A DNA stretch of 54,283 nt from a virus (taxonomy: Duplodnaviria > Caudoviricetes), in the IMG/VR virus record IMGVR_UViG_3300045922_000602, positions 1 to 54,283 of that record; one strand, 5' to 3'. Below are positions 10,893 to 54,283 of this stretch, in pieces; the stretch's first letter is position 1; the number at the start of each line of letters is the position of its first letter. The notes under the pieces are model-generated. The model made no database searches. It was given only the letters and a program-made list of their open reading frames with translations, and had not been told where the DNA came from. The translations under genes were made by a program, and so were the position numbers.

Positions 10893-12677
10893 TCATTGCT
10901 CAGTCATTCCCATTGCGTGTCTAACTGTTGTTGGGGACGTCGAGATAAGTGCTTTGATCAGCGGCTCGATGTTCACGGTTCTAGGCTTCAATTCCGGTGC
11001 GAGATCCCCAGCTTCGGGATAGGCTTCTGCGAGCTTCACCAGTTTCTTGACGTGCTTCCTTCCGTATCTCCCTTCCTTCAATGCGGTCTTTTCAACTTGG
11101 TTCATTATCTGGCCATATAGTTTTGTTTCGAACTTCCCGCCGAGGCGGAAGTTCTTGAATCGATCCGTTAAAGATTCGCTGAGTGGAGGAATGTGCAATT
11201 CTTTGCCCAATGGGACTGCCTGCTTCGGGCGGGTTTTCTGTACTTCTGAGAGCGCCGAATAAATCGTCCATGCCTTGGCGGCTTCAGGGTCGAATTTTGC
11301 AACCCGCTCCGTGACCACTTCGCGGAAAGCTGCTCTGAGTTGAGGGAATCTTTTATCATGGAGGTCTGCCATGATCATGCGCTGCTTCCGCAGATCATTT
11401 GGGTTTGAGATGCCCCTCAGTCGTGTCTCCATGATACGGTTCATCCATGCAGCATCGTCGATTAGGTCTTGGATTTTGACCTGTTTTGCATCACCACGAA
11501 GGCTAGTGTAGATCTGTTCTGCTTCTTCTCTTGTCAGATCTTTTACTTTGTCCATCATTGCCTGAAGGAGGCGTTCTTTGTTTACTGGTTGATGGCCTAT
11601 GAAGCCTCGTTTGATATTGCCAATCACTTCACCAGTTGTGAGCCGCGCAATATCATTCGCTAAGACAAGATCTTTCGGTTGTTGTAGTAGGGGCTGTCCT
11701 TTTCCTGCAAGTCCTATGATTGTTCCTATCTCTTCAATAGGTCGCCCCTCCATGTTGAAGTATCTGTCTCCGAACCGAACCGCTTCAATCGTTTCTCGTG
11801 TTGTCCCACCAAGTGGGGAAGGCCTCTCAATGGTCACTGGAACGCGTTCCATTTGCCTTCCAGCATCTACAGTCATTCGGATACCAATATTTTCGATTGG
11901 GGCCTTCTTCGAGCCGGGAAGGTTACTCATTCCCCCACCATAGGCGAGGTCATAGTGCTCCTTCATCTGTTTCAGGACGGATGGTACTTCCCCCGCGTGT
12001 TCTGTAAATTTCACAGCTCTGGTATCAAACATTCGCGGTTTGTACATCCGACCAGTAACTGGGACTTTAGCAGCATATTTGGGTGCAAACGGCCCTACTA
12101 TAAGGCCACCAAGGGTTTGACCAACTGCAGACGGGGTTTCTGTCATTTGCTTGAAAAAGTCCGATACGCCGGTTTTGGCCTGCTCCCAGGCCGGTCCAAG
12201 GCCTTCGGTTGCGGCAGTTGCGAGGGTGCCGTAAAGGCCCTTAAGGCCACTATAGATCAATGGCACCGCAAGCGCTCCTTGCACAACGGGGCCGCCGACT
12301 GCAGCCGCTGTGCCTATGGCCGCTCCACCTACTAGACCTTTTATCATTTCCTGGTTTGCACGCTGCATGTCCTCTTGCGTCCGAATGTCTTTTACCCATG
12401 GTGCAAAAGGTATATCAACAACTGGTTCTTGTGGTGCGTCAATACGTGCAGGTAACTGTGAACGGAATTTGAGAAACTGCAGATGGGGCTCCGCACCTGC
12501 TATTCTGGCTATATCGTGAATGACGCTTCTCTTCGCTAGGGAAAGACTCTTATCGTCTATTGCGCGAGCGACGGCTTCGTACGGTGTGCGGAACTGCACG
12601 CCAGTTTCTTCACTGTAGGTTTGATGGAACTCATTAAGTAGTTGTTGCGCCTCTTGTGGCGTTAGTGGGGTCGGCAT
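10893..12677 (-). CDS. Putative internal virion / ejection protein
   Basis: G/A-rich membrane-like stretch; position typical of podovirus ejection genes. Confidence 0.5.
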   Translation of the reverse strand: MPTPLTPQEAQQLLNEFHQTYSEETGVQFRTPYEAVARAIDDKSLSLAKRSVIHDIARIAGAEPHLQFLKFRSQLPARIDAPQEPVVDIPFAPWVKDIRTQEDMQRANQEMIKGLVGGAAIGTAAAVGGPVVQGALAVPLIYSGLKGLYGTLATAATEGLGPAWEQAKTGVSDFFKQMTETPSAVGQTLGGLIVGPFAPKYAAKVPVTGRMYKPRMFDTRAVKFTEHAGEVPSVLKQMKEHYDLAYGGGMSNLPGSKKAPIENIGIRMTVDAGRQMERVPVTIERPSPLGGTTRETIEAVRFGDRYFNMEGRPIEEIGTIIGLAGKGQPLLQQPKDLVLANDIARLTTGEVIGNIKRGFIGHQPVNKERLLQAMMDKVKDLTREEAEQIYTSLRGDAKQVKIQDLIDDAAWMNRIMETRLRGISNPNDLRKQRMIMADLHDKRFPQLRAAFREVVTERVAKFDPEAAKAWTIYSALSEVQKTRPKQAVPLGKELHIPPLSESLTDRFKNFRLGGKFETKLYGQIMNQVEKTALKEGRYGRKHVKKLVKLAEAYPEAGDLAPELKPRTVNIEPLIKALISTSPTTVRHAMGMTEQ

Positions 12678-15167: not shown

Positions 15168-15520
15168 TATAGCCTCCGCCGGTATCGGAACTCCGGCCCC
15201 TTCGATGTGTTCTCCGCGCCCATGTGCTCCAAGACCTCTTGGAATTCTTTATCTTCCACGGGTACACGGAAGTAGTACTCGGAGACTCCGGAACCCTTGA
15301 AATAATTCATGGCCGCCAGCTCTGCCATCCACATGTTGCGTGGAGACGCGCCGTTGAAATACCAGGGATCCAGTTCGACGATTTGGCGGGCTACCAATAA
15401 CACAGGCTCCCCGCCAGCGGGTGGATCCCAAGCCAATACGGCGCTGGTTGGTCCGAGGTCTGCTTGTGCGGCAATGGCCTCCCGTTCTTTCTCAGTGGCG
15501 AATCGAATTACACCCTTCAT
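15167..15520 (-). CDS. GNAT-fold-like small protein
   Basis: IR.AT N-terminus and L..MG C-terminal pattern; GNAT-like genes often precede podovirus ejection genes. Confidence 0.4.
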   Translation of the reverse strand: MKGVIRFATEKEREAIAAQADLGPTSAVLAWDPPAGGEPVLLVARQIVELDPWYFNGASPRNMWMAELAAMNYFKGSGVSEYYFRVPVEDKEFQEVLEHMGAENTSKGPEFRYRRRL

Positions 15521-16488
15521 ATGACTTTGATCTTTCCGTCTTTCACTGTTACATTCACTGTTTGGCGGTTGCGTAAACTCATCTGCGCCAGTTGAAACAT
15601 AACTGAGCGCTCCAGTTCATGCTGCATCGCCCTGGCTCCAAGTGAGTTGGCTACATGTCGTATAAGGTACTCTTCGGCATCGTCGTCCAGTCTGAGGACG
15701 ATGAGCAGGCCGGTTTGGAGTAAGCGGCCTTGCATCTTCTCCATCATTTTTGTGATAATTGCACGGAAGGTATCGTCCCCCAATGGGCGGAAGATCACAA
15801 TCTCATCCACACGGGCGAGAAACTCTGGGGAGAAGTGGCGTTTGATGGCCCGCATTGCCTTCTTCTCGATGTCCTCTGTGTGGCCGATATACCCGATGTC
15901 CTGTCCCTCCAGTGTGCGCATGATGTCCCTTGCGCCGAGGTTGGAGGTCATAAAAACGAAGCAGCGGCGGATGCTGAGCGGCGTCTGTGGGCGGTTCTTG
16001 TTGTGCCCAACCCCGGTGTCGATCAGCCCCAGCCATGCTTGAGCAACCTCAGGCGCGGCTTTCTCAATCTCATCGAACAGGATGACGCCCATGTTGTGCG
16101 GATTGCTGGCGCATATGGCCGTAATGCGTTCCTGGCACAGCATTGCTGGTTCATCGGATCGTATGTATCCCGGGGGTGATCCGAAGAGCACAGAACTTTC
16201 ATGTTTGTCACTGACCATCGATCCATCAATAGTCAGTAGGGACGCACCATCGTTTGAGCCACGGATGATTTCGGCCAACGCTTTAGCTGTTTCCGACTTA
16301 CCCACACCCGTAGGACCAGCGAGCATGTACACACCGAGGGGGCGTTCGGGGTCCTGTAGCCCGGCGAAAGCTATGGACATGTGGCGCGCCAAACGCTCCA
16401 ATGCTGCATCTTGGCCGTAAATCCGTGTTGTGAGTGCTTCATACAGGCGTTCGAAGTCCATCTTTACGGGTTTGGTTGCTGCCATCAT
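15517..16488 (-). CDS. ClpA/ClpB-like AAA+ ATPase (second nucleotide-binding domain only)
   Basis: IYGQD, Walker A GPTGVGKSE, pore loop GSPPGYI, Walker B LFDEIEKA, TSNLG, PEFLARVD, GAR sensor 2. Confidence 0.92.
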   Translation of the reverse strand: MMAATKPVKMDFERLYEALTTRIYGQDAALERLARHMSIAFAGLQDPERPLGVYMLAGPTGVGKSETAKALAEIIRGSNDGASLLTIDGSMVSDKHESSVLFGSPPGYIRSDEPAMLCQERITAICASNPHNMGVILFDEIEKAAPEVAQAWLGLIDTGVGHNKNRPQTPLSIRRCFVFMTSNLGARDIMRTLEGQDIGYIGHTEDIEKKAMRAIKRHFSPEFLARVDEIVIFRPLGDDTFRAIITKMMEKMQGRLLQTGLLIVLRLDDDAEEYLIRHVANSLGARAMQHELERSVMFQLAQMSLRNRQTVNVTVKDGKIKVI

Positions 16489-19037: not shown

Positions 19038-20246
19038 TCAGAAGTTCCTTTCGTAGTACATTCCACCTATATCAATGGTTTTATCCACGGCTGTTAGTGT
19101 CCTTAAGTAGACTACGATAAGTTGTGGTTGATCGGCTGCTGGGAGGGTTGTGGTGTTCGTGCAGACTGTGTTGCCGTCAATACGGAATTGATATGCGCTC
19201 CCAGTCCATTCTACCTCGAACAGATGGAGGTTTGTGTCTGCCGTGACTCCAGAGTCGTTTATAGTGCATGAGGATGCATTGCATGTTAGACATTTATATG
19301 TTGTATCCGAGGCGCTAGTTGAGTACCTGAACCCGGCAACGTGCATACTAGATGGTGTGTCTTGTGACATTATATTAATGTTATTCGACAAACCAATCCA
19401 ACTACGAACAGCTGTAAGCGATCCAATTCGAGCATATATTCTGGATACCTCATCACGGCGGTATCGGCCTATCAAAACTGTTCTAATGCCAGCCTGATTA
19501 TTGGTGGTAGCCCCCGTAGCAAATCGTACGGTTGAGTGAGGGTTGCCAGACAATCCTAAAAAAGTTTGTGAACCAACCACCTCTATAGACATACCCAATG
19601 TTGTTATGTTAAATGGAGGCATGCCTACAAATAAGATTGAGAACATCCGTGGTAAAAATAATGACGGCATGGCTGCCTTGGGTTCCCATTGGGAGCCACC
19701 CCATGCTAGTACATCTCCAGGGGATGGGGTGGAGGGGGAGACCGTGCGGCCACGGATTCTTTCGACTACGGTTGAGTTAAGGTTGCCTGTTACGTCGCCT
19801 GCGGCGGTATGGCCGTGATTGCTAGCCGCGACATTGCTCAGGTTGGCTCCGAGCGCAGTTTCGATCGCTTTGACTTCGGCGGCGAGTTGGTTGTGATGGT
19901 GTGCTGCATGTACACCCTGTACTTCCGCACCAGCGCTGTGAGCCGCCGCCGCCGAGTCATCGAAACCTCGTCCTCCCGTGCAGACTGTGAGCGTGTTGCC
20001 GGAGATGGAGCAGACCTTGATGTACTCGTCGTCAATGGCGACAACGAGCGGCGCAGTGAACTCCGAACCGTCCGCAACGGGGATGGACGTATCCGATGCG
20101 GAGATGCCCGCTGTTAGGGTTGAGCTGGCAAGGTTTTTGGCGACGAGTAGGTCTTGATCGTTTGCTACTGCCGAGGGAAAAACGGGTGAGTTGGGGTTTT
20201 GGGCCAGAAGGACAGCGGGAAGAAGAATGGACCAAAGCCAGCGCAT
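19038..20246 (-). CDS. Tail-fibre/receptor-binding-like protein with signal peptide, paralogue 3
   Basis: Start MRWLWSILLPAVLLA-Q; RGFD..AAAH..GA.V domain, coiled coil, C-terminal lectin-like H.FEVEW...FRIDG region. Confidence 0.7.
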   Translation of the reverse strand: MRWLWSILLPAVLLAQNPNSPVFPSAVANDQDLLVAKNLASSTLTAGISASDTSIPVADGSEFTAPLVVAIDDEYIKVCSISGNTLTVCTGGRGFDDSAAAAHSAGAEVQGVHAAHHHNQLAAEVKAIETALGANLSNVAASNHGHTAAGDVTGNLNSTVVERIRGRTVSPSTPSPGDVLAWGGSQWEPKAAMPSLFLPRMFSILFVGMPPFNITTLGMSIEVVGSQTFLGLSGNPHSTVRFATGATTNNQAGIRTVLIGRYRRDEVSRIYARIGSLTAVRSWIGLSNNINIMSQDTPSSMHVAGFRYSTSASDTTYKCLTCNASSCTINDSGVTADTNLHLFEVEWTGSAYQFRIDGNTVCTNTTTLPAADQPQLIVVYLRTLTAVDKTIDIGGMYYERNF

Positions 20247-20253
20247 AGCGACG

Positions 20254-21462
20254 TTAGAAGTTCCTTTCGTAGTATATTCCACCTACATCAATGGTCTTGT
20301 CTACAGCTTGTAGAGTAGATATTTGGGCCGTGATACCTAGTGGTTGGTTGGCTGCTGGAAGGTTTGTGGTGTTTGTGCAGACCAAGTTGCCGTCAATGCG
20401 GAATTGATACGCGCTTCCGGTCCATTCTACCTCGAACAGGTGCAGGTTTGTGTCTGCCGTGACTCCAGAGTTTGTATTTGTGCATGAGCTCGCGTTGCAT
20501 GTTATACACCGAAATGTGGCGTCTGAAGAAGTCGTCGAATATCGGAATCCAGCAACATGCATATCAGATGGTGTGTCTGTTAATATTATACTCCCTGTGT
20601 CACTCGACAGAGCAATCCAACTACGGATGGCTGTAAGCGGTCCAATTCGAGCATATGCTCTGAATACCTCATCACGGCGGTATCGGCCTATCGAATAATT
20701 CGTTCTAACGCCAGCAATATTATTGGTGGTAGCCCCAGTGGCATATTGCACAGTTAAGTGAGGGTTGTCAGACAATCCTAAAGCAGTTTGTGTGCCATCC
20801 GATGCTAGAAACATACCCCGTGCTTGTAAGGAAGTTTCATTTGCCAGCGCGATTGAGAATATCCGTAACGAAAATAATGAAAGTGTGGCTGCTTTTGGTT
20901 CCCATTGAGAGCCGTTCCATGTTAGTGCGTCTCTGGAGGATGGGTCGGTAGAGGATACCACGCGGCCACGGATCTTTTCGACTACGGTTGAGTTCAAATT
21001 GCCTGTTACATCACCTGCAGCAGTGTGACTGTGGTTGCTAGCTGCGACATTGCCCAAGTTAGCTCCGAGCGCAGTTTCAATTGCTTTGACCTCGGCGGCG
21101 AGTTGGTTGTGATGGTGCGCCGCATGCACACCCTGTACTTCCGCACCAGCGCTGTGAGCAGCTGCTGTCGAGCCGTCGAAACCCCGTCCGCCCGTGCAGA
21201 CTGTGAGTGTGTTGCCGGAAATAGAACAGATCCTAATGTACTCGTCGTCAATGGCGACAACAAGTGGTGCAGTGAACTCCGAACCGTCTACAACGGGAAT
21301 GGACATATCTGACGCTGTGATAGCTGCCGTCAGGGTCGAGCTAGCGAGGTTCTTGGCAACGAGCAAGTCCTGGTCGTTTACCACCGCTGACGGGAAGACG
21401 GGTGAGTTGGGGTTCTGGGCTAGAAGGGCAGTTGGAAGGAGGATAAACCAAAGACGGCGCAT
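20254..21462 (-). CDS. Tail-fibre/receptor-binding-like protein with signal peptide, paralogue 2
   Basis: Start MRRLWFILLPTALLA-Q; near-identical N-half to its neighbours. Confidence 0.7.
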   Translation of the reverse strand: MRRLWFILLPTALLAQNPNSPVFPSAVVNDQDLLVAKNLASSTLTAAITASDMSIPVVDGSEFTAPLVVAIDDEYIRICSISGNTLTVCTGGRGFDGSTAAAHSAGAEVQGVHAAHHHNQLAAEVKAIETALGANLGNVAASNHSHTAAGDVTGNLNSTVVEKIRGRVVSSTDPSSRDALTWNGSQWEPKAATLSLFSLRIFSIALANETSLQARGMFLASDGTQTALGLSDNPHLTVQYATGATTNNIAGVRTNYSIGRYRRDEVFRAYARIGPLTAIRSWIALSSDTGSIILTDTPSDMHVAGFRYSTTSSDATFRCITCNASSCTNTNSGVTADTNLHLFEVEWTGSAYQFRIDGNLVCTNTTNLPAANQPLGITAQISTLQAVDKTIDVGGIYYERNF

Positions 21463-21469
21463 AGCGGCA

Positions 21470-22681
21470 TTAGAAGTTTCTTTCGTAGTACAGTCCGCCA
21501 ATATCAATAGTCTTATCCCCGGACGATAGTTTGAACACGCGGGTTATGATACCTAGTGGTTGGTTGGCTGCTGGAAGGTTTGTGGTGTTTGTGCAGACCA
21601 CATTACCGTCAATACGGAATTGATACGCACTCCCAGTCCATTCTACTTCAAATAGGTGTAGGTTCGTGTCTGCCGTGACCCCGGAGTTGTTTACGGTGCA
21701 TGAGGATGTATTGCATGTTACGCATCGATATGTTGTATCTGAGGCGTTAGTTGAGTATCGAAACCCAGCGACGTGCTTATCAGACGGTGTGTCTTGCTCT
21801 TGTATACTTGGGTCACTAACTAAAGCGATCCAATGACGAATGCTTGTTGTTGACCCAATCCGAATGTATGCCCGGAATACTTCATCGCGACGAAACCGAC
21901 CCAACGGATTTGTCCCAGGGCCAGCGCCAAGGGCGTGATTACTGGAAGTAGATGACCGTAGGAGCAAATGAGGATTGCTACCACTAGACAAGTCTACGGC
22001 AGACCGCGAACCAAAATCATACAGAGTCATACCTAATGTTTCTAGGTTGCTAGTTTCATTTGCCAGCGCGATTGAGTATATCCGTGGTGAAAATAATGAC
22101 GGCGTGGCTGCTTTGGGCTCCCATTGGGAGCCGCTCCATGTTGGTACGTCCCTGGGGGATGGAGCGGCAGAAGATACCACGCGGCCACGGATTCTTTCGA
22201 CTACGGTTGAGTTAAGGTTGCCTGTTACGTCGCCTGCGGCGGTGTGGCTGTGGCTGCTCGCTGCGACGTTTCCTAAGTTAGCCCCGAGGGCGGTTTCGAT
22301 TGCCTTGACTTCGGCGGCGAGTTGGTTGTGGTGGTGCGCTGCATATACGCCCCGCACTTCTGCGCCGGAGCTGTGAGCAGCTGCTGTCGAGCCGTCGAAA
22401 CCCCGTCCGCCCGTGCAGACTGTGAGCGTGTTGCCGGAGATGGAGCAGACCTTGATGTACTCGTTGCCAATGGCGACAACGAGCGGTGCAGTGAACTTCG
22501 AACCATCCGCTACTGGAATGGACGTGGCCGACGCGGAGATGTTTGCTGTCAAGGTTGAGCTGGCGCGGTTTTTGGCGACGAGCAAGTTCTGGTCGTTTGC
22601 TACTGCCGAGGGGAAGACGGGAGAGTTGGGGTTCTGCGCTAGAAGCGCAGCGGGGAGGAGAATGAACCAAAGGCGGCGCAT
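21470..22681 (-). CDS. Tail-fibre/receptor-binding-like protein with signal peptide, paralogue 1
   Basis: Start MRRLWFILLPAALLA-Q; same architecture, ends YYERNF. Confidence 0.7.
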   Translation of the reverse strand: MRRLWFILLPAALLAQNPNSPVFPSAVANDQNLLVAKNRASSTLTANISASATSIPVADGSKFTAPLVVAIGNEYIKVCSISGNTLTVCTGGRGFDGSTAAAHSSGAEVRGVYAAHHHNQLAAEVKAIETALGANLGNVAASSHSHTAAGDVTGNLNSTVVERIRGRVVSSAAPSPRDVPTWSGSQWEPKAATPSLFSPRIYSIALANETSNLETLGMTLYDFGSRSAVDLSSGSNPHLLLRSSTSSNHALGAGPGTNPLGRFRRDEVFRAYIRIGSTTSIRHWIALVSDPSIQEQDTPSDKHVAGFRYSTNASDTTYRCVTCNTSSCTVNNSGVTADTNLHLFEVEWTGSAYQFRIDGNVVCTNTTNLPAANQPLGIITRVFKLSSGDKTIDIGGLYYERNF

Positions 22682-38110: not shown

Positions 38111-38569
38111 CCCGGTGCGTTGTAAATCGGGCCTAAAATGCTAAGGCCCCTATAGTATAGGTGCGTGTAGGTGGGGTTGCGTGTGTCTGAGGTGAGACAG
38201 TGATTGATATGATTGGGGTTGGGCTGGATTTAGGGGGTGAATTTTGTATAGATAATCCAGCCATTTTTGGGTATCCCGCATATCAAAATTCTGTCTGCCG
38301 TCAATGGGGACCCCTAGGACTAGAGCGGGTGGGGGGAACTAAGCCAAAACCTATATACACCTCTGACTCCAACAGCCCCACTCTCAACCCACTGATCAAT
38401 CAGATATTTAGGACCTTCAGATCTTTAATACTAATGATCCGAAATTCCGATTCCAACTTCCGGTTTCGGAGTTTGGGATCCGAATATCTGATATATGCGG
38501 CGGCACCCGCAAACGACAAGTAAAAGCCCGCTAAGAAGCCGAAGGAATGGCGAAAGCGGTAGTTGTACT

Positions 38570-38598
38570 GTGTCCGATAATACCCTATTATGTCAACT
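38570..38598 (+). other. dif-like XerCD recombination site
   Basis: GTGTCCGATAA-TACCCTA-TTATGTCAACT. The right arm matches the E. coli XerD arm TTATGTTAAAT at 9/11; the central region is 7 bp rather than 6. Confidence 0.6.
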
Positions 38599-38922
38599 TT
38601 TGCCTTACGGTAAGTTGTTGAATTTAAACGATTGGGGATTTTCGGATCTGGATGCCCGAAATTACAACGGGATTTCGGAGTTTCGGATCTTATTGTCTGG
38701 ATTGGGGTTGAATCTATACTTTTTAGTAAAGATTAGGCCCCTAGTAGGGCGGTAGGGACCGGGTCTGGAGGCCTGCCACGGCGGGAGAGCGGGGAGGCGC
38801 GGGGCAGGTGCCGCCGCTCCAACCTATATATATATGATACATGGGGCAAAAAATTAATTTTTCATAATGTACTTGCTATGCTGTGTCCATGTGTAGTAAG
38901 CTGGGGTCAAAGAAGGAGCAAA

Positions 38923-39144
38923 ATGCGGAACGAACTGATTCTGACTCTAGCGAAGGTGATAGCCCTGACCAGAACGGCAACCAACACGAACGAGAGCCTC
39001 CATTGGGAGGCCCGCCAGTGGGAATTGGAGCGTCGACTCGGCCCGCTCACCCGGGCCGAAGAGGCCTATATTGCCCGCGAGGTAGCGCGGGCGATGGCAT
39101 CTAGAAAGGAGTACCATGAAACCAAAACCCAGGATGATCTTTAA
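38923..39144 (+). CDS. Early hypothetical protein
   Basis: AAGGAG RBS after the first early promoter. Confidence 0.75.
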   Translation: MRNELILTLAKVIALTRTATNTNESLHWEARQWELERRLGPLTRAEEAYIAREVARAMASRKEYHETKTQDDL

Positions 39145-39409
39145 CAGACAATTGGAGCTGGTTTACCGATCCGACCCGGAAACCCCCCAAACAATAGGAC
39201 ACTACCGTGCACAGGCGCGGCGTATCTTCGCGAAGTACCCCCACATGGAGCGTATGGTCGTAGTCTGGCGGCCATGTACACCCCGCGTGCGGTATAAGCC
39301 GGAGCCTGGGGAGGCACTGTACGTCCCCAGTACCGGGGGACGGTATGGCAAGAGCTGTATGGTCCGCGTCGGTGGCGAGCGGGGCGTACTTGCGCGCGCC
39401 GAAGGCTGA
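39116..39409 (+). CDS. Early hypothetical protein
   Basis: AAGGAG RBS; followed by a terminator. Confidence 0.75.
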   Translation: MKPKPRMIFNRQLELVYRSDPETPQTIGHYRAQARRIFAKYPHMERMVVVWRPCTPRVRYKPEPGEALYVPSTGGRYGKSCMVRVGGERGVLARAEG

Positions 39410-39432
39410 CTCTGTCTCGACCCCCCCCCCCC

Positions 39433-39467
39433 GCCGTACTGCCCCGTGCAGTACGGCATTTTTTTTT
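39433..39467 (+). terminator. Intrinsic terminator
   Basis: GCCGTACTGC-loop-GCAGTACGGC, then A and a T9 run. Confidence 0.88.
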
Positions 39468-39592
39468 GCCCCATTTTCGGAGTTTCGGATCTTATTGTCT
39501 GATTTTGGCCCGGGCACCGCCGCTAAAATTAATTTTCCATAATGTGGTTGACACACTGCATCAATATGATAGATTGGGATAAGGAGCTACAC

Positions 39593-40630
39593 ATGACCAC
39601 TACCCCTCTGGAAACGAAATTAGCATCCACCCCCGAAGGCCGTCGCGCTCTCTATTACTATGAGCGCGGATGGATCTTACCATCGGATGGGGCCGAGATG
39701 GAGGCATGGAATAATGCCTACATCGAGGCCATGGAAGCGGCGAGTACAAATGACGAAATCATGTTTTTACTCGCCGCCGGGCCTATGACGCAGAAAAGGC
39801 ACCATAATGCACTCGCCTATACGCCCTTGTACAGGCAAGCGTATGAGGCGCAACTGAAGGGCCTCAAGCGCCTTCCGCGTGCATACGTGCGATGCCTACG
39901 CGATGACCTACGATATGCGGCCTACCGCGCGCACACGCCGCTGCAGGAGCAGAAGGTCGAAGGGGGGCCGCCCTGGGTCCGTCTTGTACGACCAGAGTGG
40001 GATGACCACTCTAGTCTCCGCGATCAGTGGTTCCTCGAGGTGCCGCGCCGCACCATCGAAGCCATTGGCGAGCGGACTTACGAGGAAGCAGTCCGTCACC
40101 CCATATACTTGCGTGCTGGCCACCTAGTGGCCAGCAAACTGACGGTGAAAACAGCAGCATGGCCAACCGCCGAAGGGGGCCATGTACTATCGGTACTGGT
40201 CCAAACAGCACGCGGCGGCGCGTTCGCGTGCGAGGTCGTATTCCGGCACGGGCGTGAGCGTTTCTCCGCATGGCGCAAGTTGGGCGGCGGCGACATCCAT
40301 GATGCACTGCTGCCCCATATCGGGCGCGCGGTGCGACTGGGGGATGTCGTCATCCGTGCCACCGCGCGTTCGTCCGCACCGTATGGGTCCCTCCCATGCG
40401 AGCGACCGCATTACCTGGAGCGGGTGGAATTCCCGGCTGGGGAATTCCTCACAGCCCCTGATGGGGTCTTCTTCCAGTTAGAAAACCCCACCTACCCCAC
40501 CCACTCACTGAGACTGTCGCACCCCGACCACTACACCGTCGAGGTGCACTTGGACGTTGGCCAAATACTACACATCATGCAAGTGCCGGGGCGGACACAA
40601 TACCTCCCGCGCTGGGATCAGGGGGACTGA
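39593..40630 (+). CDS. Early hypothetical protein (345 aa)
   Basis: TAAGGAG RBS; has its own promoter and terminator. Confidence 0.8.
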   Translation: MTTTPLETKLASTPEGRRALYYYERGWILPSDGAEMEAWNNAYIEAMEAASTNDEIMFLLAAGPMTQKRHHNALAYTPLYRQAYEAQLKGLKRLPRAYVRCLRDDLRYAAYRAHTPLQEQKVEGGPPWVRLVRPEWDDHSSLRDQWFLEVPRRTIEAIGERTYEEAVRHPIYLRAGHLVASKLTVKTAAWPTAEGGHVLSVLVQTARGGAFACEVVFRHGRERFSAWRKLGGGDIHDALLPHIGRAVRLGDVVIRATARSSAPYGSLPCERPHYLERVEFPAGEFLTAPDGVFFQLENPTYPTHSLRLSHPDHYTVEVHLDVGQILHIMQVPGRTQYLPRWDQGD

Positions 40631-40652
40631 TCGACACGTAGCGTGGCCCTCC

Positions 40653-40688
40653 TGCCGTACTGCACCCCCTGCAGTACGGCATTTTTTT
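40653..40688 (+). terminator. Intrinsic terminator
   Basis: TGCCGTACTGCA-loop-TGCAGTACGGCA followed by T7. Confidence 0.88.
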
Positions 40689-40949
40689 GGCCCATTTCGT
40701 AGTTTCGGATCTTATTGTCCGAATGGAACGCCCCTCGCGAATAGGTCAGGTCAGTCGACCCTATTGCCATTTCCCCTTCGCTCATGCTATACTGGCGGTG
40801 GCTCGGGGACTGCCCCCATTTTCAGAGTTTCAGATCTTATTGTCTGATTTGTGGCCTATGAAAAACCGCCGCTCTATGAAAAACCGCCGCCAAAATTAAT
40901 TTTTCATAATGCACTTGACACCGCCCTGCCTATGTAATAGACTGGGGGC

Positions 40950-41234
40950 ATGATACGACACAACCTTGATGGACCTCTCACCGAGGTCCTATCCAAACTC
41001 TGCCCATACAGTGGCTGGTATGGCTTCGGGCGCGGCACGACCGAAGCCATGAGATTTCTTCGTGAACGCCTCATCCGCGAGGGATGGACGCCATGGACTT
41101 TCGGCGGCACCATCCCGCCCGGTCTGGACGTAATCCACGGCCCCACCGGCACATACCGCCGAGGCGGGCCACAGTCCAGGACGAAATTCTACGCGGGCCG
41201 CTGGGTGCGCCCGCGCCCGGAGGCGCAATCATGA
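40950..41234 (+). CDS. Early hypothetical protein, paralogue of 46233..46547
   Basis: Leaderless start; shared GWY..G.G...E, VI.GPTG.Y and G.W.R motifs. Confidence 0.75.
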   Translation: MIRHNLDGPLTEVLSKLCPYSGWYGFGRGTTEAMRFLRERLIREGWTPWTFGGTIPPGLDVIHGPTGTYRRGGPQSRTKFYAGRWVRPRPEAQS

Positions 41235-41812
41235 CTCTGGACAACGTGACCGCGTCATTGCCCCTGCGGGGCGCGTTGGCCCTGGCCAAAAGGGCTGGGG
41301 CCTGCCGAGAGGCCCTGGACGCCATCGGTCAAATGGCGGACTGGGGCGAATTCTTCGCCCACCCCAAAGCCCCGTCCTGGTCGTACTGGTACGCCCGCCA
41401 TGTCATCGGCGGCCGATGGCCGGAGGCCGAACCGGTAATCGTCCGTGACCCCAAGGCGGCCTACGAGTACGCGCGCCATGTCATCGGCGGCCGATGGCCG
41501 GAGGCCGAACCGGTAATCGTCCGTGACCCGGAAACAGCCTGCATATACGCCGACTACATCCTACGAGGCCGATGGCCCGAGGCCGAGGCCGTCATCGCCT
41601 CCCATCCCAAATGGGGGTTCGAGTATGCCCTTGTGATCTTGCGGCGGCGATGGCCGGAGGCTGAGGCCGCCATCGCCCGCGACCCCGCCGAAGCGTACAA
41701 TTACGCCCTTCATGTCCTACGCGGACGGTGGCCCGAGGCCGAGGCTACCATCGCCCGCTCGGCGACCTACTGGGACCTCTACGAGCGGGGCGTACTTGCG
41801 CGCGCCGGCTGA
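41231..41812 (+). CDS. RWPEAE-repeat protein (5 repeats)
   Basis: GGAGG RBS; AGAC.EAL head followed by 26-aa repeats. Confidence 0.85.
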   Translation: MTLDNVTASLPLRGALALAKRAGACREALDAIGQMADWGEFFAHPKAPSWSYWYARHVIGGRWPEAEPVIVRDPKAAYEYARHVIGGRWPEAEPVIVRDPETACIYADYILRGRWPEAEAVIASHPKWGFEYALVILRRRWPEAEAAIARDPAEAYNYALHVLRGRWPEAEATIARSATYWDLYERGVLARAG

Positions 41813-41826
41813 TCCTGCCGACCCCG

Positions 41827-41860
41827 TGCCGTGCTACCCTGTAGCACGGCATTTTTTTTT
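41827..41860 (+). terminator. Intrinsic terminator
   Basis: TGCCGTGCTAC-loop-GTAGCACGGCA followed by T9. Confidence 0.88.
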
Positions 41861-41935
41861 GTTGCCCCAATTTCGGAGTTTCAGACCTTGTTGTCTGAAT
41901 TTGACACGCCGCATCAAATATGATAGACTGAGGGC

Positions 41936-42091
41936 ATGACAACACTACTCACCCCCACCAAAGCATATTGGTACGCTACCCACGTAGTGGGTGGCCGCTG
42001 GCCCGAGGCCGAACCCACCATTCGCAGGTCATCATTCGACTACGACTACTTAGAGCGCGTTTTGCGCGCCGGATGGGCTGGCCGCATCTGA
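41936..42091 (+). CDS. Single-repeat RWPEAE mini-protein (51 aa, not in the ORF track)
   Basis: ATG 6 nt after TAGACT; MTTLLTPTKAYWYATHVVGGRWPEAEPTIRR... Confidence 0.7.
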   Translation: MTTLLTPTKAYWYATHVVGGRWPEAEPTIRRSSFDYDYLERVLRAGWAGRI

Positions 42092-42125
42092 GAGGATTAA
42101 TTTCACTTATGAAAGGAGATAAACT

Positions 42126-42353
42126 ATGAAACTAACAAAAAAAGAGCGCGCCCTAGCGCGCAAGTTCGGCCTGTCGCCGGAGGTCGCCGTAGATCTCTGC
42201 GATGCGTTCGACGACGTCTCCATCGATGAGATTGAGACACTGGAGTACGAGTACGACGACGACCCAAACATCGCCGTCACAATCACATGGACATCATCAC
42301 GTACTGGCGATAGCTATACGGAGACATACTATCGCGGTATTGGATGGTGCTGA
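42126..42353 (+). CDS. Small acidic early protein
   Basis: AAAGGAG RBS; D/E-rich centre. Confidence 0.75.
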   Translation: MKLTKKERALARKFGLSPEVAVDLCDAFDDVSIDEIETLEYEYDDDPNIAVTITWTSSRTGDSYTETYYRGIGWC

Positions 42354-42371
42354 TATAAGGAGGTGGATGAT

Positions 42372-42405
42372 GCCGTGCTGCAGCTCCTGCGGCACGGCTT
42401 TTTTT
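42372..42405 (+). terminator. Intrinsic terminator
   Basis: GCCGTGCTGCAG-loop-CTGCGGCACGGC followed by T7. Confidence 0.85.
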
Positions 42406-42487
42406 GTTGCCCCTATTTTTGGAGTTCCGGATCTTATTGTCTGAATTGGGGCTAACACCCCTACGCCCTTGGCACTCGCTGCACAAT

Positions 42488-42503
42488 GGTTCCACGTGGA
42501 ACG
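42488..42503. promoter_or_regulatory. parS-like site
   Basis: gGTTCCACGTGGAACg: a perfect 14-bp palindrome matching the chromosomal parS consensus TGTTNCACGTGNAACA core. Confidence 0.7.
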
Positions 42504-42605
42504 CCACACACCTATGAAAAACCGCCGCTATGAAATTAATTTTTCATAATGTGCTTGACACGCTGCATCAATATGATAGATTGAGATTAGGAGACACACA
42601 ATACA

Positions 42606-43154
42606 ATGACACTCACCGAAGCACTCGAGCAAACCAAAGCCGCCGGGGCCTGTCGAGAGGCCCTGGAAGAAATCAGCCAACTGTCAGACTGGAATGAATT
42701 CTTCGCCCACCCCAAAGCCCCGTCCTGGTCGTACTGGTACGCCCGCCATGTCATTGGTGGCCGCTGGCCCGAGGCCGAACCCGTCATCGCGCGAGACCCC
42801 GAGGCGGCCTATGAGTACGCCCGCCATGTCATTGGTGGCCGCTGGCCCGAGGCCGAACCCACCATCGCCACCCATCCGAGGGCAGCATTTCTGTACGCCC
42901 ACTGGGTGCTTGGCTGCCGCTGGCCGGAGGCCGAACCGGCCATCGCCACCTCCCCAGAATACGCGTGCTATTACGCATATTGCATCCTTGGCTGCCGCTG
43001 GCCGGAGGCCGAACCGGCCATCGCCACCTCCCCAGAATACGCGTGCTATTACGCAGTGCGCGTACTCCGTAGGCGATGGCCGGAAGCCGAACCGGTCATC
43101 CTCGGATCGCCATTCTGGTGGGAGGACTACGTACGGGCCTCCCTCGCCGACTGA
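42606..43154 (+). CDS. RWPEAE-repeat protein (5 repeats)
   Basis: AGGAG RBS; AGAC.EAL head followed by 26-aa repeats. Confidence 0.85.
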   Translation: MTLTEALEQTKAAGACREALEEISQLSDWNEFFAHPKAPSWSYWYARHVIGGRWPEAEPVIARDPEAAYEYARHVIGGRWPEAEPTIATHPRAAFLYAHWVLGCRWPEAEPAIATSPEYACYYAYCILGCRWPEAEPAIATSPEYACYYAVRVLRRRWPEAEPVILGSPFWWEDYVRASLAD

Positions 43155-43168
43155 TCCCCCCCCCTCCC

Positions 43169-43204
43169 GCCGTACTGCCCCGCGCAGTACGGCATTTTTT
43201 TTTT
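43169..43204 (+). terminator. Intrinsic terminator
   Basis: GCCGTACTGC-loop-GCAGTACGGC, then A and a T10 run. Confidence 0.88.
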
Positions 43205-43256
43205 GCCCCATTTTCGGAGTTTCGGATCTTATTGTCTGATTTGTAGCGGCGCGGAT

Positions 43257-43272
43257 TGTTCCACATGGAACG
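43257..43272. promoter_or_regulatory. parS-like site (one core mismatch)
   Basis: TGTTCCACATGGAACG, at the equivalent position of the next cassette. Confidence 0.55.
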
Positions 43273-43438
43273 CGCTAAGCACGACAGCTCCGCCACACCT
43301 CACACTCGCCACACGGCGTGCTACGGCAGCTCATGCTACGCGCCCCTATGAAAAACCGCCGCTATATGAAAAACCGCCATCAAAATTAATTTTTCATAAT
43401 GTGCTTGACATACCGCATCAATATGGTAGACTGAGGAC

Positions 43439-44239
43439 ATGAAGGCACACCGCACACTGCTGAAGCAACACCCTGGGATAGTCCGCCGCCTGAGCGGCGA
43501 GCTGTTAGTGAGTAAGTCAATGATATATAAGGTGCTACGCTGTGAGAGTAAGTCACAGCGAGTAGCACACGCCCTCTACCTCGCCGCCCCAAAGTCCTTG
43601 GGGGTGGCGCTCATCCGGGCTAAGGCCGCTGGAGCCTGCCAAGAGGCCCTGGACGCCATTAGTCAGTTATCTGACTGGGATGAGTTCTTCGCCCACCCCC
43701 AATCTCCGTCCTGGGCGTACTGGTACGCCCGAAATGTCATTGGCGGGCGCTGGCCCGAAGGCGAACCCGCCATCGCCCGCAACCCCGAAACAGCCTGCTA
43801 CTACATATACTACTTCATACGGGGTAGGTGGCCGGAAGCCGAACCCACTATCGCCACTCATCCTGAATGGGCGTACTACTACGCCCGCTATTTCATCGAG
43901 GGCCGGTTTCCGGAAGCCGAACCGGCCATCGCCGCCAACCCAAAAGTAGCCTACCGCTATGCCCGATACATTATTCGGGGTCGATGGCCCGAAGCCGAAC
44001 CGGCCATCATCAAAAACCCCGGATTGGCCTGCGGATACGCCAACCATGTCCTTCGTGGTCGGTGGCCCGAGGCCGAAGCCACCATAGCCCAAGACCCCGA
44101 ATGGGCATTCGAGTACGCATGGTGTGTGATACGGGGCCGATGGCCCGAGGCCGAGACGACCATTGTCCGCGATCCCATATGGGCCGAGGAATACAATCGG
44201 CTCCTTACCTGTATGGTCCGCGTTGGTGAAAGTCGGTAG
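43439..44239 (+). CDS. HTH-like domain fused to RWPEAE repeats (6 repeats)
   Basis: N-terminal RRLSGELLVSKSMIYKVLR helix-turn-helix pattern; leaderless start. Confidence 0.8.
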   Translation: MKAHRTLLKQHPGIVRRLSGELLVSKSMIYKVLRCESKSQRVAHALYLAAPKSLGVALIRAKAAGACQEALDAISQLSDWDEFFAHPQSPSWAYWYARNVIGGRWPEGEPAIARNPETACYYIYYFIRGRWPEAEPTIATHPEWAYYYARYFIEGRFPEAEPAIAANPKVAYRYARYIIRGRWPEAEPAIIKNPGLACGYANHVLRGRWPEAEATIAQDPEWAFEYAWCVIRGRWPEAETTIVRDPIWAEEYNRLLTCMVRVGESR

Positions 44240-44253
44240 GACCATCTGCATAA

Positions 44254-44288
44254 AGGCCGTCGGGCGGGAGCTGCCCGGCGGCCTTTCT
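44254..44288 (+). terminator. Probable terminator hairpin
   Basis: GGCCGTCGGGCG-loop-TGCCCGGCGGCC followed by TTTCT. Confidence 0.55.
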
Positions 44289-44312
44289 ACACTGCAATGG
44301 TAGATTCGAGAT

Positions 44313-44651
44313 ATGATGACAACAATGACACTCACCGAAGCACTAGCCCGAGCCGAAGCCGCCGGAGCCTGCCAAGAGGCCCTGGACGCCATCGGTCAAA
44401 TGGCAGACTGGGATGAATTCTTCCGACACCCCAACGCCCCGTTCTGGGCATATTGGTTCTCCCACCACGTTATCCGGGGCCGATGGGTGGAGGCCGAAGC
44501 GGCCATTGCCACCGACGCCATGTCAGCGTACTACTACGCCCGCGACGTCCTAGAGAGCCGCTGGCCCGAGGCCGAGGCCGTCATCAGCGCGAACACCATG
44601 TGGGCGCACCGCTACGCCCGCGACGTCATGTGGGACCCCACACAGAAGTAA
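44313..44651 (+). CDS. RWPEAE-repeat protein (2 repeats)
   Basis: AGAC.EAL head followed by repeats; ATG 6 nt after TAGATT. Confidence 0.8.
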   Translation: MMTTMTLTEALARAEAAGACQEALDAIGQMADWDEFFRHPNAPFWAYWFSHHVIRGRWVEAEAAIATDAMSAYYYARDVLESRWPEAEAVISANTMWAHRYARDVMWDPTQK

Positions 44652-44678
44652 CTCGCCGCACAGCGTGCTATTTGTGCG

Positions 44679-45110
44679 ATGAAACTGCGAGCCAAAAGAC
44701 TACATCTGGACGCGCGTTTGCCGCGTTACGCTCATGGGCCGGCTGAGGATGCCGGGATGGACGTGCGCGCCGTTGAAGAAGTGGTGCTTCAGCCGGGCGT
44801 GCCGTTCGCCGTACCGACCGGCCTGGCCATCGAAGTACCCAGTGGCTACGAGGTACAGGTGCGACCGCGCAGTGGTCTGGCACTGAAGCATGGCATTACC
44901 ATTCCCAACTCCCCCGGAACGATCGATCCAGGCTACCGGGGAGAACTGAGGGTCATCATGCTCAATCTAGGGACGGAACCGTTTGTCGTCCGGAAAGGCG
45001 ACCGCATCGCCCAGCTCATTGTGGCGCGCTACGAGGCCGTCGAATGGGAAGAAGCGGAGCTGAGTCAATCATTGCGAGGTGACGGCGGCTTCGGATCAAG
45101 TGGCCGATGA
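44679..45110 (+). CDS. dut: dUTPase (trimeric type)
   Basis: AGMD, RSGLA, GTIDPGYRGE, RIAQL and RG.GGFGSSG motifs. Confidence 0.97.
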   Translation: MKLRAKRLHLDARLPRYAHGPAEDAGMDVRAVEEVVLQPGVPFAVPTGLAIEVPSGYEVQVRPRSGLALKHGITIPNSPGTIDPGYRGELRVIMLNLGTEPFVVRKGDRIAQLIVARYEAVEWEEAELSQSLRGDGGFGSSGR

Positions 45111-45167
45111 CGGGACGGAGCACCATTGACACACAGGAGATCTTTGTGATACATATAAGGTGACTCT

Positions 45168-45926
45168 ATGAAAAACCGCCGCAACGGGGGGAAATCCTCA
45201 TCGGGACATCGAGCCTGGCTACGGCGAAACCGCGACCTAATCCCCCGACTATGCCAGCAACTCGGAGTCAGCCGATCGCTGCTACTGGCAGTCCTACGTG
45301 GCGCACAGCACTCATCCCCCAAATCGGAGCTAGTAGCACACGCCCTCCGTACCGCCGGGGCACCCATACCTCCAGTACCCCTATCAGCCGTCCTAACCAA
45401 AGCTCTGGCCGTAGCTAAATCTGCCACCCACCAAGAAATCCTAACAGAAATGTCGCGGGTGTCAAATTGGGATGAGTTCTGGTCCCGCCCGCAGCTAGCC
45501 GTGTGGTACGCTCGACACGTCATTCGGGGCCGGTGGCCAGAAGCCGAACCGAAAGTCGCCACCCATCCAGTAGCAGCCTACGAGTACGCCCGTCATATCA
45601 TCCGTAGCCGTTGGCCAGAGGCCGAACCCACCATTTCCGCCCATACACCGCCAGCATACTGGTATGCGTCCTACGTCATCCGAGGCCGCTGGCCAGAAGC
45701 CGAATTAGCCATCGCCGCCGATCCAAAGTGTGCCTACGGCTATGCCCTGCACATCATCCGAGGCCGATGGCCCGAGGCCGAGACGACCATTGCCAAAAAC
45801 CCCGAATGGGCCTACCACTATGCTCTGAACATCATTTGTGGTAAATGGCCCGAAGCGGAACCAATAATCATGCAGCATCCATGTTGGGCCTACTACTACA
45901 CCCGAGACGTCGAAGCTCTCCTGTAG
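45168..45926 (+). CDS. HTH-like domain fused to RWPEAE repeats (5 repeats)
   Basis: RLCQQLGVSRSLLLAVLRG HTH pattern, homologous to the N-terminus of 43439..44239. Confidence 0.8.
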   Translation: MKNRRNGGKSSSGHRAWLRRNRDLIPRLCQQLGVSRSLLLAVLRGAQHSSPKSELVAHALRTAGAPIPPVPLSAVLTKALAVAKSATHQEILTEMSRVSNWDEFWSRPQLAVWYARHVIRGRWPEAEPKVATHPVAAYEYARHIIRSRWPEAEPTISAHTPPAYWYASYVIRGRWPEAELAIAADPKCAYGYALHIIRGRWPEAETTIAKNPEWAYHYALNIICGKWPEAEPIIMQHPCWAYYYTRDVEALL

Positions 45927-46041
45927 TAGCACAGAAGGCTATGAAAAACCGCCGCAGTCGAAAATTAATTTTTCGCAATGTGCTTGACGAAAAGATGGAT
46001 TCATGATAGAATGTAATCATGAAAACTAGGAGACTAAAGCC

Positions 46042-46236
46042 ATGACAGAAATTCTATCTCTTGTAATACTCATCATATTGGCCCTTTATTTTTGGCCAAT
46101 TATTTTGGCAATTTTAGTACTTTACGGGCTGTACCGACTCGTACGTGGGGCCACCCTCCTTTTTTTACTTGGGCTTAACTATATCTTCATCATGCCCATA
46201 CAGCGGGTCTGCCGCCTGCTCGGTCTACGCCAATGA
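46042..46236 (+). CDS. Small membrane protein
   Basis: AGGAG RBS; almost entirely hydrophobic. Confidence 0.7.
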   Translation: MTEILSLVILIILALYFWPIILAILVLYGLYRLVRGATLLFLLGLNYIFIMPIQRVCRLLGLRQ

Positions 46237-54150: not shown

Positions 54151-54276
54151 CGCAAATTCGGCCATTCCCGTCTACGCCACAGTCCGGAGGATATGTTTAT
54201 GTTGTTCCTCAATGCTCCAGCAGCAGCTAATGGTCTACTCATCTACGACAAGGATCGTCATCCCTGCGGCAGTCTC
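54151..54276. repeat. Terminal direct repeat, copy 2
   Basis: Identical to 1-126; the last 7 bases of the window diverge from 127-133. Confidence 0.95.
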
Positions 54277-54283
54277 GCCCGGC

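Follow-up and report, generated by a model that had tools for sequence, protein, structure and literature searches.

Why should a tailed phage that encodes no recognisable partition protein carry, twice, the palindrome at which bacteria load ParB onto their chromosomes? The question is raised by the IMG/VR virus record IMGVR_UViG_3300045922_000602, whose 54,283 bases are referred to below, over the full length, as the window. Two 16-mers, GGTTCCACGTGGAACG at position 42488 (site 1) and TGTTCCACATGGAACG at position 43257 (site 2), are found in the early region of this genome exactly where an initial annotation had placed them, 769 bases apart. By their sequence these palindromes are of the chromosomal parS type, and we consider it probable that both are working loading sites for the ParB of the host, as in phage phi29.

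The whole window was searched with the consensus TGTTNCACGTGNAACA. When up to two mismatches are allowed, only sites 1 and 2 are recovered (0.15 matches expected), and two matches are reached in one of 100 shuffled sequences. The same two sites are the only ones detected with the 14-nt core and at most one mismatch (0.01 expected). The perfect form TGTTCCACGTGGAACA, with up to three mismatches, gives three matches for 0.28 expected, a number reached by none of 100 shuffles; the third match, at 2675, is poor. With respect to the consensus and its intact CACGTG centre, site 1 agrees fully and site 2 partly, and the canonical T..A outer bases are absent from three of the four ends. Palindromy alone is unremarkable, the window containing eight perfect 14-nt palindromes for 3.9 +/- 1.9 in 60 simulations. 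The unusual feature is which palindrome is present, and its double occurrence. One perfect 14-nt palindrome located in a late gene, TGGAACGCGTTCCA (11838-11851), displays the parS half-words in the opposite order, probably by chance. A hairpin or RNA element was rejected as a candidate: the single-strand folding of the three sites examined is no better than that of shuffles (z = 0.30, -0.71 and -0.33), and no Rfam family was found in the window.

The initial annotation had identified the palindrome as the chromosomal type of parS, and this identification is borne out by the parS lists given in PMC4368675 and PMC7022226, where the same words appear as validated sites. Pseudomonas aeruginosa, as described in PMC4368675, has ten parS sites with the perfect form TGTTCCACGTGGAACA; the functional, high-affinity sites parS1/4 end in C and contain GTGGAACC/GGTTCCAC. 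The same account presents the intact CACGTG as important, the weakest P. aeruginosa site having a CATG centre, and reports that a single parS together with parAB stabilises an unstable plasmid. The near-universal chromosomal consensus is given as TGTTNCACGTGAAACA in PMC7022226, whose Table 1 lists TGTTCCACGTGGAACG for Myxococcus xanthus, and ParB is described there as binding GTTCCAC half-sites in some species. The form TGTTCCACGTGGAAC(A/G) is listed for Pseudomonas and Myxococcus (PMC7022226 Table 1; PMC4368675), and Pseudomonas putida appears in Table 1 of PMC7022226 with TGTTCCACGTGGAACA. Each half-site of the phage palindromes is found in an experimentally validated parS of these two sources. 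On this basis the core of site 1 would be of full strength, its two outer changes being tolerated, and site 2 should be the weaker one.

The sites are embedded in a row of small early transcription units that occupies about 38.4-46 kb of the + strand and is punctuated with striking regularity. In each cassette a terminator hairpin is followed by a 41-nt box, then by a variable spacer, by one or more TATGAAAAACCGCC motifs and by a near-identical sigma70-type promoter. Strong hairpin terminators with a T run are present in five copies in the early region (38400-46050). The 41-nt box, directly 3' of the terminator, occurs in eight copies and contains two direct TTTCGGA words and one inverted. TATGAAAAACCGCC is found in seven exact copies (0.33 expected), one or two per cassette, and the seven strong + strand promoters are A+T-rich, of the form TTGACA-16/17-TAGAnT and mostly with a TG extension. 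Most genes between these marks are paralogues composed of 26-residue repeats. It is in the variable spacer that each palindrome is found, in DNA that is not transcribed, past a terminator and ahead of the following promoter; exactly one unit (promoter 42555, gene 42606-43154, terminator 43169) is enclosed by the pair.

The spacers IG6 and IG7, which precede the paralogous genes 42606 and 43439, have one block in common, ATNGTTCCACNTGGAACGC, with 17 of 19 positions identical, and the score of this block is reached by one of 2000 shuffles. When the palindromes are masked, the best alignment of the two spacers is at the level of chance (769 of 2000 shuffles). The flanks differ so much that MAFFT left the two palindromes unaligned. 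The terminators, boxes and promoters around the spacers are conserved in like manner to the block. Since the flanking bases shared by the two sites are not palindromic, the two copies descend from one ancestor. This pattern suggests that the sites were kept while the surrounding DNA was randomised or replaced, and we read it as evidence of function, the caveat being that n = 2.

The same pattern bears on the explanation that the sites are non-functional, i.e. that a parS-like word, arisen by chance or brought in as a scrap of host DNA, was copied with the duplication of a cassette and has not decayed. The cassettes being paralogous, two copies need one origin only, and the shared non-palindromic flanks (AT.. 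and ..GC) favour common descent over convergence. About 0.15 chance matches are expected in a genome of this size, and the initial annotation had been looking for known motifs. A third cassette, at 40724, retains half of the word only, and such sites are missing from distant relatives. Under neutrality, however, the block should have decayed along with its flanks, whereas it has kept its identity between spacers that have diverged to randomness. Both variants coincide, moreover, with natural members of the parS clusters of one phylum, as described below. We regard the non-functional explanation as possible but doubtful.

A remnant of the palindrome, TGGAACG, had also been proposed at 40724. 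This 7-mer occurs nine times in the window for 8.4 expected, and GTTCCAC is likewise at chance level; the proposed remnant therefore has no statistical weight of its own, nor is it an exact half of parS. What stands is its position next to a cassette box and the ATGGAACGC flank that it shares with site 2; ATGGAACGC, abutting the box, is all that this third cassette retains. GGAAC is known as a -35 motif of promoters recognised by extracytoplasmic function (ECF) sigma factors, and TGGAACG might be read as such an element for the small sigma factor of the phage (49017-49508). This factor is of ECF type according to NCBIfam (TIGR02937, 54 bits for a cut-off of 42.9), and TGGAACGC is common to all three cassettes. 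No promoters of this factor were identified. The combination GGAAC-N15-17-CGT/GTC is found once in the early region, at 40725, and six times inside late genes; it is present at neither palindrome on either strand, and an ECF -35 element was rejected there for lack of a CGT/GTC -10 element at 15-17 nt. Such a promoter would also leave the conserved left half of the palindrome unexplained, and the TGGAACG word is not enriched. As an explanation of the sites, the ECF promoter is very improbable indeed.

The two sites had been said to occupy equivalent intergenic positions. This is correct in that both lie in the variable spacer of a repeated cassette, and not for the distances to the box and the promoter. 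Site 1 begins 43 nt and site 2 begins 17 nt after the box, and the centres of the sites are located about 93 and 174 nt, respectively, upstream of the inferred transcription starts. This unfixed geometry speaks against a classical operator or activator site. More generally, the palindromes could be operators of another dimeric DNA-binding protein, either an early phage protein or a host regulator, the likeness to parS being coincidental. A conserved island in regulatory DNA would be consistent with this, most early proteins belong to no family, and the cassettes are dense with further conserved motifs that must bind something. Nevertheless, the chance that an arbitrary palindromic operator of 14 bp agrees with the parS core is of the order of 4^-7 by our arithmetic, the distances to the promoter vary (about -93 and -174), and a site is present at only two of the seven strong + strand promoters. 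With Pfam and PHROGs, no DNA-binding domain was recognised near the sites and no DNA-binding family among the early proteins. We hold this operator to be quite improbable.

If the palindromes are read by a host ParB, they should be compared with the parS sites of the host, a comparison already proposed with the initial annotation. As far as the host is indicated by the dUTPase gene of the phage, the comparison is favourable, both exact cores being natural in acidobacterial parS clusters. A search of 185,579 species genomes with the phage dUTPase gave chromosomal dUTPases that match it along the full length with 65-76% identity. Among the best 80 of 180 loci, 76 are from Acidobacteriota (49 being titled as Bryobacterales), with contigs of 0.2-6.7 Mb in many cases, and the viral relatives display only 48-50% identity. 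At the DNA level, matches of 65-75% were found in 74 of 401 sampled acidobacterial genomes (72 of 399 without the unpublished G034 and G162), nearly all at the dUTPase gene itself. These values suggest a fairly recent capture of the gene from the host, and a host among the Acidobacteriota appears likely. Acidobacteriota are not known to make spores. A Bacillota host, an early guess from the promoter style and the holin family, was dropped, a strong Shine-Dalgarno core being present in only 16 of 53 genes.

The exact core of site 1 is present in 84 of 151 evenly drawn acidobacterial genomes, for 1 of 151 with the reversed control (83 of 150 without G034), usually in one to five copies spaced by tens to thousands of bases. 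Within the taxonomic order that contains the best dUTPase matches, 26 of 81 genomes have this core (control, 2 of 81). All five acidobacterial genomes tested contain ParB_N, at 1-1.5 kb from the three sites of G007, at 8.6 kb in G027 and at 51-190 kb in the other three. From 20 chosen regions of 18 genomes, where clusters were preferred, we collected 45 sites; 24 are canonical 16-mers, and two are letter for letter site 1 of the phage, each with a second site alongside. The outer base of the 90 half-sites is T in 68, C in 16, G in 6 and A in none. The exact 16-mer of site 1 was found in the chromosomal parS clusters of three genomes (G021, G151 and G011). The exact core of site 2 is present in 9 of the 151 genomes (control, 0), in eight of which a perfect site is found at a distance of 34 bp to 12 kb. 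In G011, GGTTCCACGTGGAACG is followed 34 bp on by GGTTCCACATGGAACG, which is almost the pair of the phage. Six acidobacterial genomes of 3.0-3.3 Mb and 67-70% G+C (G101, G160, G137, G076, G046 and G062) keep the variant GCAG(G/A)CGTTCCACATGGAACAC, which in the first four is located about 11.5 kb from a perfect parS and looks like a conserved weak site of the ori domain.

Relatives of the phage were searched with the terminase large subunit (TerL), the 362-aa, 423-aa and repeat proteins, the 41-nt box and the TATGAAAAACCGCC word. The sole close relative, L007, is a contig of 17.5 kb (TerL 93%) collinear with about 27.0-38.6 kb of the window. Its early region is organised otherwise, with one promoter and a string of small genes, and the contig ends just after the homologue of the window gene 40950-41234, short of the site region. 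No further close relatives were found in viral, metagenome or genome collections, and the six other loci detected by a 16-nt word have no protein-level likeness to the window. These collections also yielded about 30 more distant TerL relatives, from viral and metagenome sources, with 40-60% identity. The records of five relatives, including G002 (64 kb), G003 (54 kb) and G005, were searched whole for sites: G002 contains no match, G003 one near-match inside a gene, and G005 one match with two mismatches. An intergenic near-match in L030 was rejected as not parS-like. Since G002 and G003 have no convincing sites, the trait does not appear to be clade-wide. Neither a DNA match to the window nor a match of the repeat protein was found among GenBank phages, and for the portal protein the only matches, of 21-24% identity, are in two cyanophages and an uncultured Caudoviricetes record.

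Words of the full chromosomal parS type are common in viral contigs. A scan of IMG/VR with the exact core gave at least 120 loci, of which 80 were fetched, a mixture that may include contigs with ParB or host DNA. They hold 81 sites; the canonical T..A outer bases are present in 32 of them, for 1 in 16 by chance, and at least one canonical outer base in 68, for 44% by chance. Inside long open frames are 55 of the 81 sites.

Several observations weigh against loading sites for an acidobacterial ParB. It is not obvious why a virulent phage should need partition. Site 1 lacks both canonical outer bases, its flank type being found in only 3 of the 81 perfect-core sites of the fetched viral contigs and an outer G in only 6 of the 90 natural half-sites, and site 2 breaks the CACGTG core that is called important in the parS comparison of PMC4368675. 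The sites number only two and lack independence, a single ancestral cassette being the origin of both. L007 has no parS-like site in its 17.5 kb, which stop before the homologous place, and nothing convincing was seen in G002 and G003, two distant relatives with near-complete genomes and about 49% TerL identity. Concerning the host, it is deduced from one gene whose tree is poorly resolved and places the phage in no supported clade; an Acidimicrobiia metagenome-assembled genome (MAG) is among the nearest rows of the phage in this tree, and four of the best 80 dUTPase loci are not acidobacterial. The holin is unmatched in 301 acidobacterial genomes, its homologues being three proteins, none with an organism name. 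No link of the type given by clustered regularly interspaced short palindromic repeats (CRISPR) was found: four short DNA matches outside the dUTPase gene were fetched, and none adjoins a CRISPR-like array. The first three Bryobacterales genomes examined use GTTTCACGTGAAAC and not the phage variant, and the genomes with the site-2 variant have 67-71% G+C versus 55% for the phage.

The initial annotation had seen no parAB, and our searches agree: ParB_N, AAA_31 and CbiA gave nothing in six frames at E <= 1, with positive controls, and neither ParA nor ParB appeared in the Pfam scan of 67 open reading frames (ORFs). Plasmid-prophages such as P1 and N15 have their own ParA and ParB and their own centromere sequences. 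The phage is comparable with these in having a centromere on its genome, which could give stable inheritance without integration, and differs from them in having no parA-parB operon of its own by either search. No Phage_integrase was found in six frames at E <= 1 (control positive), and no recombinase or repressor family was recognised by Pfam among the 67 ORFs. The phage looks virulent on this gene content, although the lack of a recognisable integrase or repressor is no proof of absence. A dif-like site had been mentioned without coordinates in the initial annotation; a single light search with a dif core motif, which is a weak test, found none.

An orphan host parS on a phage is not new in principle, since phi29 makes such use of Spo0J, the ParB of its host, in the account given by PMC2731898. 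In the virulent Bacillus phages phi29 and Nf, Spo0J binds parS and helps to trap the genome in the spore; phi29 has five parS sites, and Spo0J is involved in the segregation of its genome into the prespore (PMC2731898, citing Meijer et al. 2005). Searches of the literature gave no other native case, the other phage papers that they returned using parS/ParB as an engineered label. The present phage resembles phi29 and Nf in being a lytic-type podophage without ParA/ParB and in carrying several copies of a host chromosomal parS, whose proposed reader is the host ParB. It differs in having two sites instead of five. Binding has been demonstrated for phi29 and is predicted for the present phage. 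The role in phi29 is tied to sporulation, together with Spo0A boxes, whereas the inferred host phylum is not known to sporulate. Spo0A boxes like those of phi29 were rejected as a component here, the 0A-box word not being enriched in the window (6 for 7.2 expected). The benefit would thus differ from entrapment in spores. With the chromosomal parS clusters the phage shares the 14-bp core, natural variants with its outer bases and its central change, and a pair of sites less than 1 kb apart, an arrangement also seen in acidobacterial clusters; the phage sites differ in not being beside oriC/parAB and in having no partition genes in cis.

The mechanism proposed for the preferred reading, in which host ParB loads at the two sites, is taken step by step from the established biology of ParB. 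After entry of the phage DNA, dimers of the host ParB would load at the sites as cytidine triphosphate (CTP)-dependent clamps and would spread over the adjacent early region, building a partition complex on the phage genome. The host ParA/ParB system, possibly with SMC, could then position or carry the phage DNA. The most likely benefit would be the retention of an unintegrated genome in dividing cells or in dormant, slow-growing cells (a carrier state), which would be analogous to the Spo0J-dependent trapping of phi29 DNA in spores. Secondary possibilities are that the spreading of ParB damps early transcription, or that ParB is titrated. Titration, like persistence as a mini-chromosome, had been conjectured in the initial annotation.

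The features of the site region are collected in Table 1.

Table 1. Features of the site region and its neighbours (positions in the window)
Feature	Position	Strand	Remarks
TGGAACG 'remnant'	40724..40730	+	1 nt after box of third paralogous cassette; shares ATGGAACGC with site 2
26-residue-repeat genes	41231-41812, 41936-42091, 42606-43154, 43439-44239, 44313-44651, 45168-45926		
Intrinsic terminator, upstream unit	42372..42398	+	12-bp stem and T run
41-nt box (1 of 8)	42404..42444	+	Site 1 begins 43 nt later
parS-like site 1	42488..42503		GGTTCCACGTGGAACG; 14-bp core perfect (14/14), both outer bases non-canonical
TATGAAAAACCGCC motif (1 of 7 exact)	42513..42526	+	Just upstream of promoter
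Early sigma70-type promoter	42555..42582	+	TTGACA-16-TAGATT, TG extension
Gene, 182-aa protein of 26-aa repeats	42606..43154	+	Single transcription unit between the two sites
Intrinsic terminator of the 42606-43154 unit	43169..43193	+	
41-nt box	43199..43239	+	Site 2 begins 17 nt later
parS-like site 2	43257..43272		TGTTCCACATGGAACG; core 13/14, centre CACATG for CACGTG, one outer base off
Two TATGAAAAACCGCC motifs	43347..43378	+	
Next early promoter	43405..43432	+	TTGACA-16-TAGACT
dUTPase gene	44679..45110	+	Only clue to host

The early region as a whole resembles a set of exchangeable expression cassettes. An additional sigma70-type promoter, TTGCCA-18-TATACT, is located at 40764-40793 in the long spacer of the cassette IG4, facing a second copy of the 41-nt box, and a decayed copy of its -10 region (GCTCATGCTA) persists in the spacer of site 2. 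Another word, ATGAAAAACCGCCGC, present between 40857 and 45953, can be translated as the beginning of very small basic ORFs (MKNRR...) and forms the true start of gene 45168. L007 has this word twice between genes (reverse strand, about 830 and 1500), where it is part of small hairpins. Leader peptides, remnants of former gene starts or sites for a protein could account for it. The proteins with the 26-residue repeat (..YA..V(I/L).GRWPEAEP.I..) are encoded by six genes in 41231-45926, with 22 units in total. Their family has no Pfam or PHROGs model and comprises at least 1351 homologues; its ESM Atlas clusters are virus-only, and its fold is predicted with confidence, at a predicted local distance difference test (pLDDT) value of 0.91. 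It is a viral family, the only members with an organism name being on two short contigs of a Kapaibacterium MAG.

Concerning the rest of the genome, the first 126 bases of the window recur exactly at its far end (1-130 and 54151-54283), after which the two copies diverge at a poly-C tract. This overlap looks like that of a circular assembly in which the homopolymer is uncertain, and the genome is therefore probably essentially complete. CheckV estimates the completeness at 83%, and IMG/VR classes the record as linear. The sequence is present in only two public runs, labelled hot springs and microbial mat metagenome; both are possibly the source sample and so provide no independent populations for a test of conservation. 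The Pfam scan of the 67 ORFs gave the set of a tailed phage, i.e. an SU10-type portal and adaptor, a T4-type large terminase, a capsid protein and a holin, together with a VapE-type primase-helicase, a PD-(D/E)XK nuclease, a dUTPase and the small sigma factor. One frame of 818 aa (4849-7305) encodes a family A DNA polymerase to which a uracil-DNA glycosylase domain is fused at the N terminus. No tRNAs were found in the window. Among the structural and lysis genes, 15517-16488 (- strand) encodes a protein of 323 aa that corresponds to the second AAA+ module and the D2-small domain of ClpB/ClpA. The ClpB-type matches listed for it, with 27-39% identity, are spread over many phyla, so that this gene does not discriminate the host. 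Three tandem paralogous genes of 403-417 aa occupy 19038-22681 (- strand) with a period of 1216-1219 nt and 78-88% DNA identity; they belong to no family and may encode receptor-binding or decoration proteins.

A wider generalisation, which we consider rather unlikely, would make of the orphan host-type parS a general device of phages across phyla. In the present case, the host would be a non-sporulating, slow-growing hot-spring member of the Acidobacteriota, a ParB clamp would form beside the first-expressed genes, and the otherwise virulent phage would persist as a silent episome (the carrier state) through the host ParABS system, infection resuming with changed growth conditions; dormancy would then be obtained without integrase, repressor or partition gene. 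Apart from this generalisation, if the sites work, a phage without lysogeny or partition genes would join the segregation of the host chromosome through 16 bp of DNA. Such a case, from an uncultured hot-spring phage that probably infects Acidobacteriota, would free the device from its tie to sporulation, it would bear on the persistence of 'virulent' phages in slow-growing communities, and the variant of the host parS would provide a cheap sequence marker linking phages to hosts. Predictors of lifestyle that consider genes only could then miss persistence strategies.

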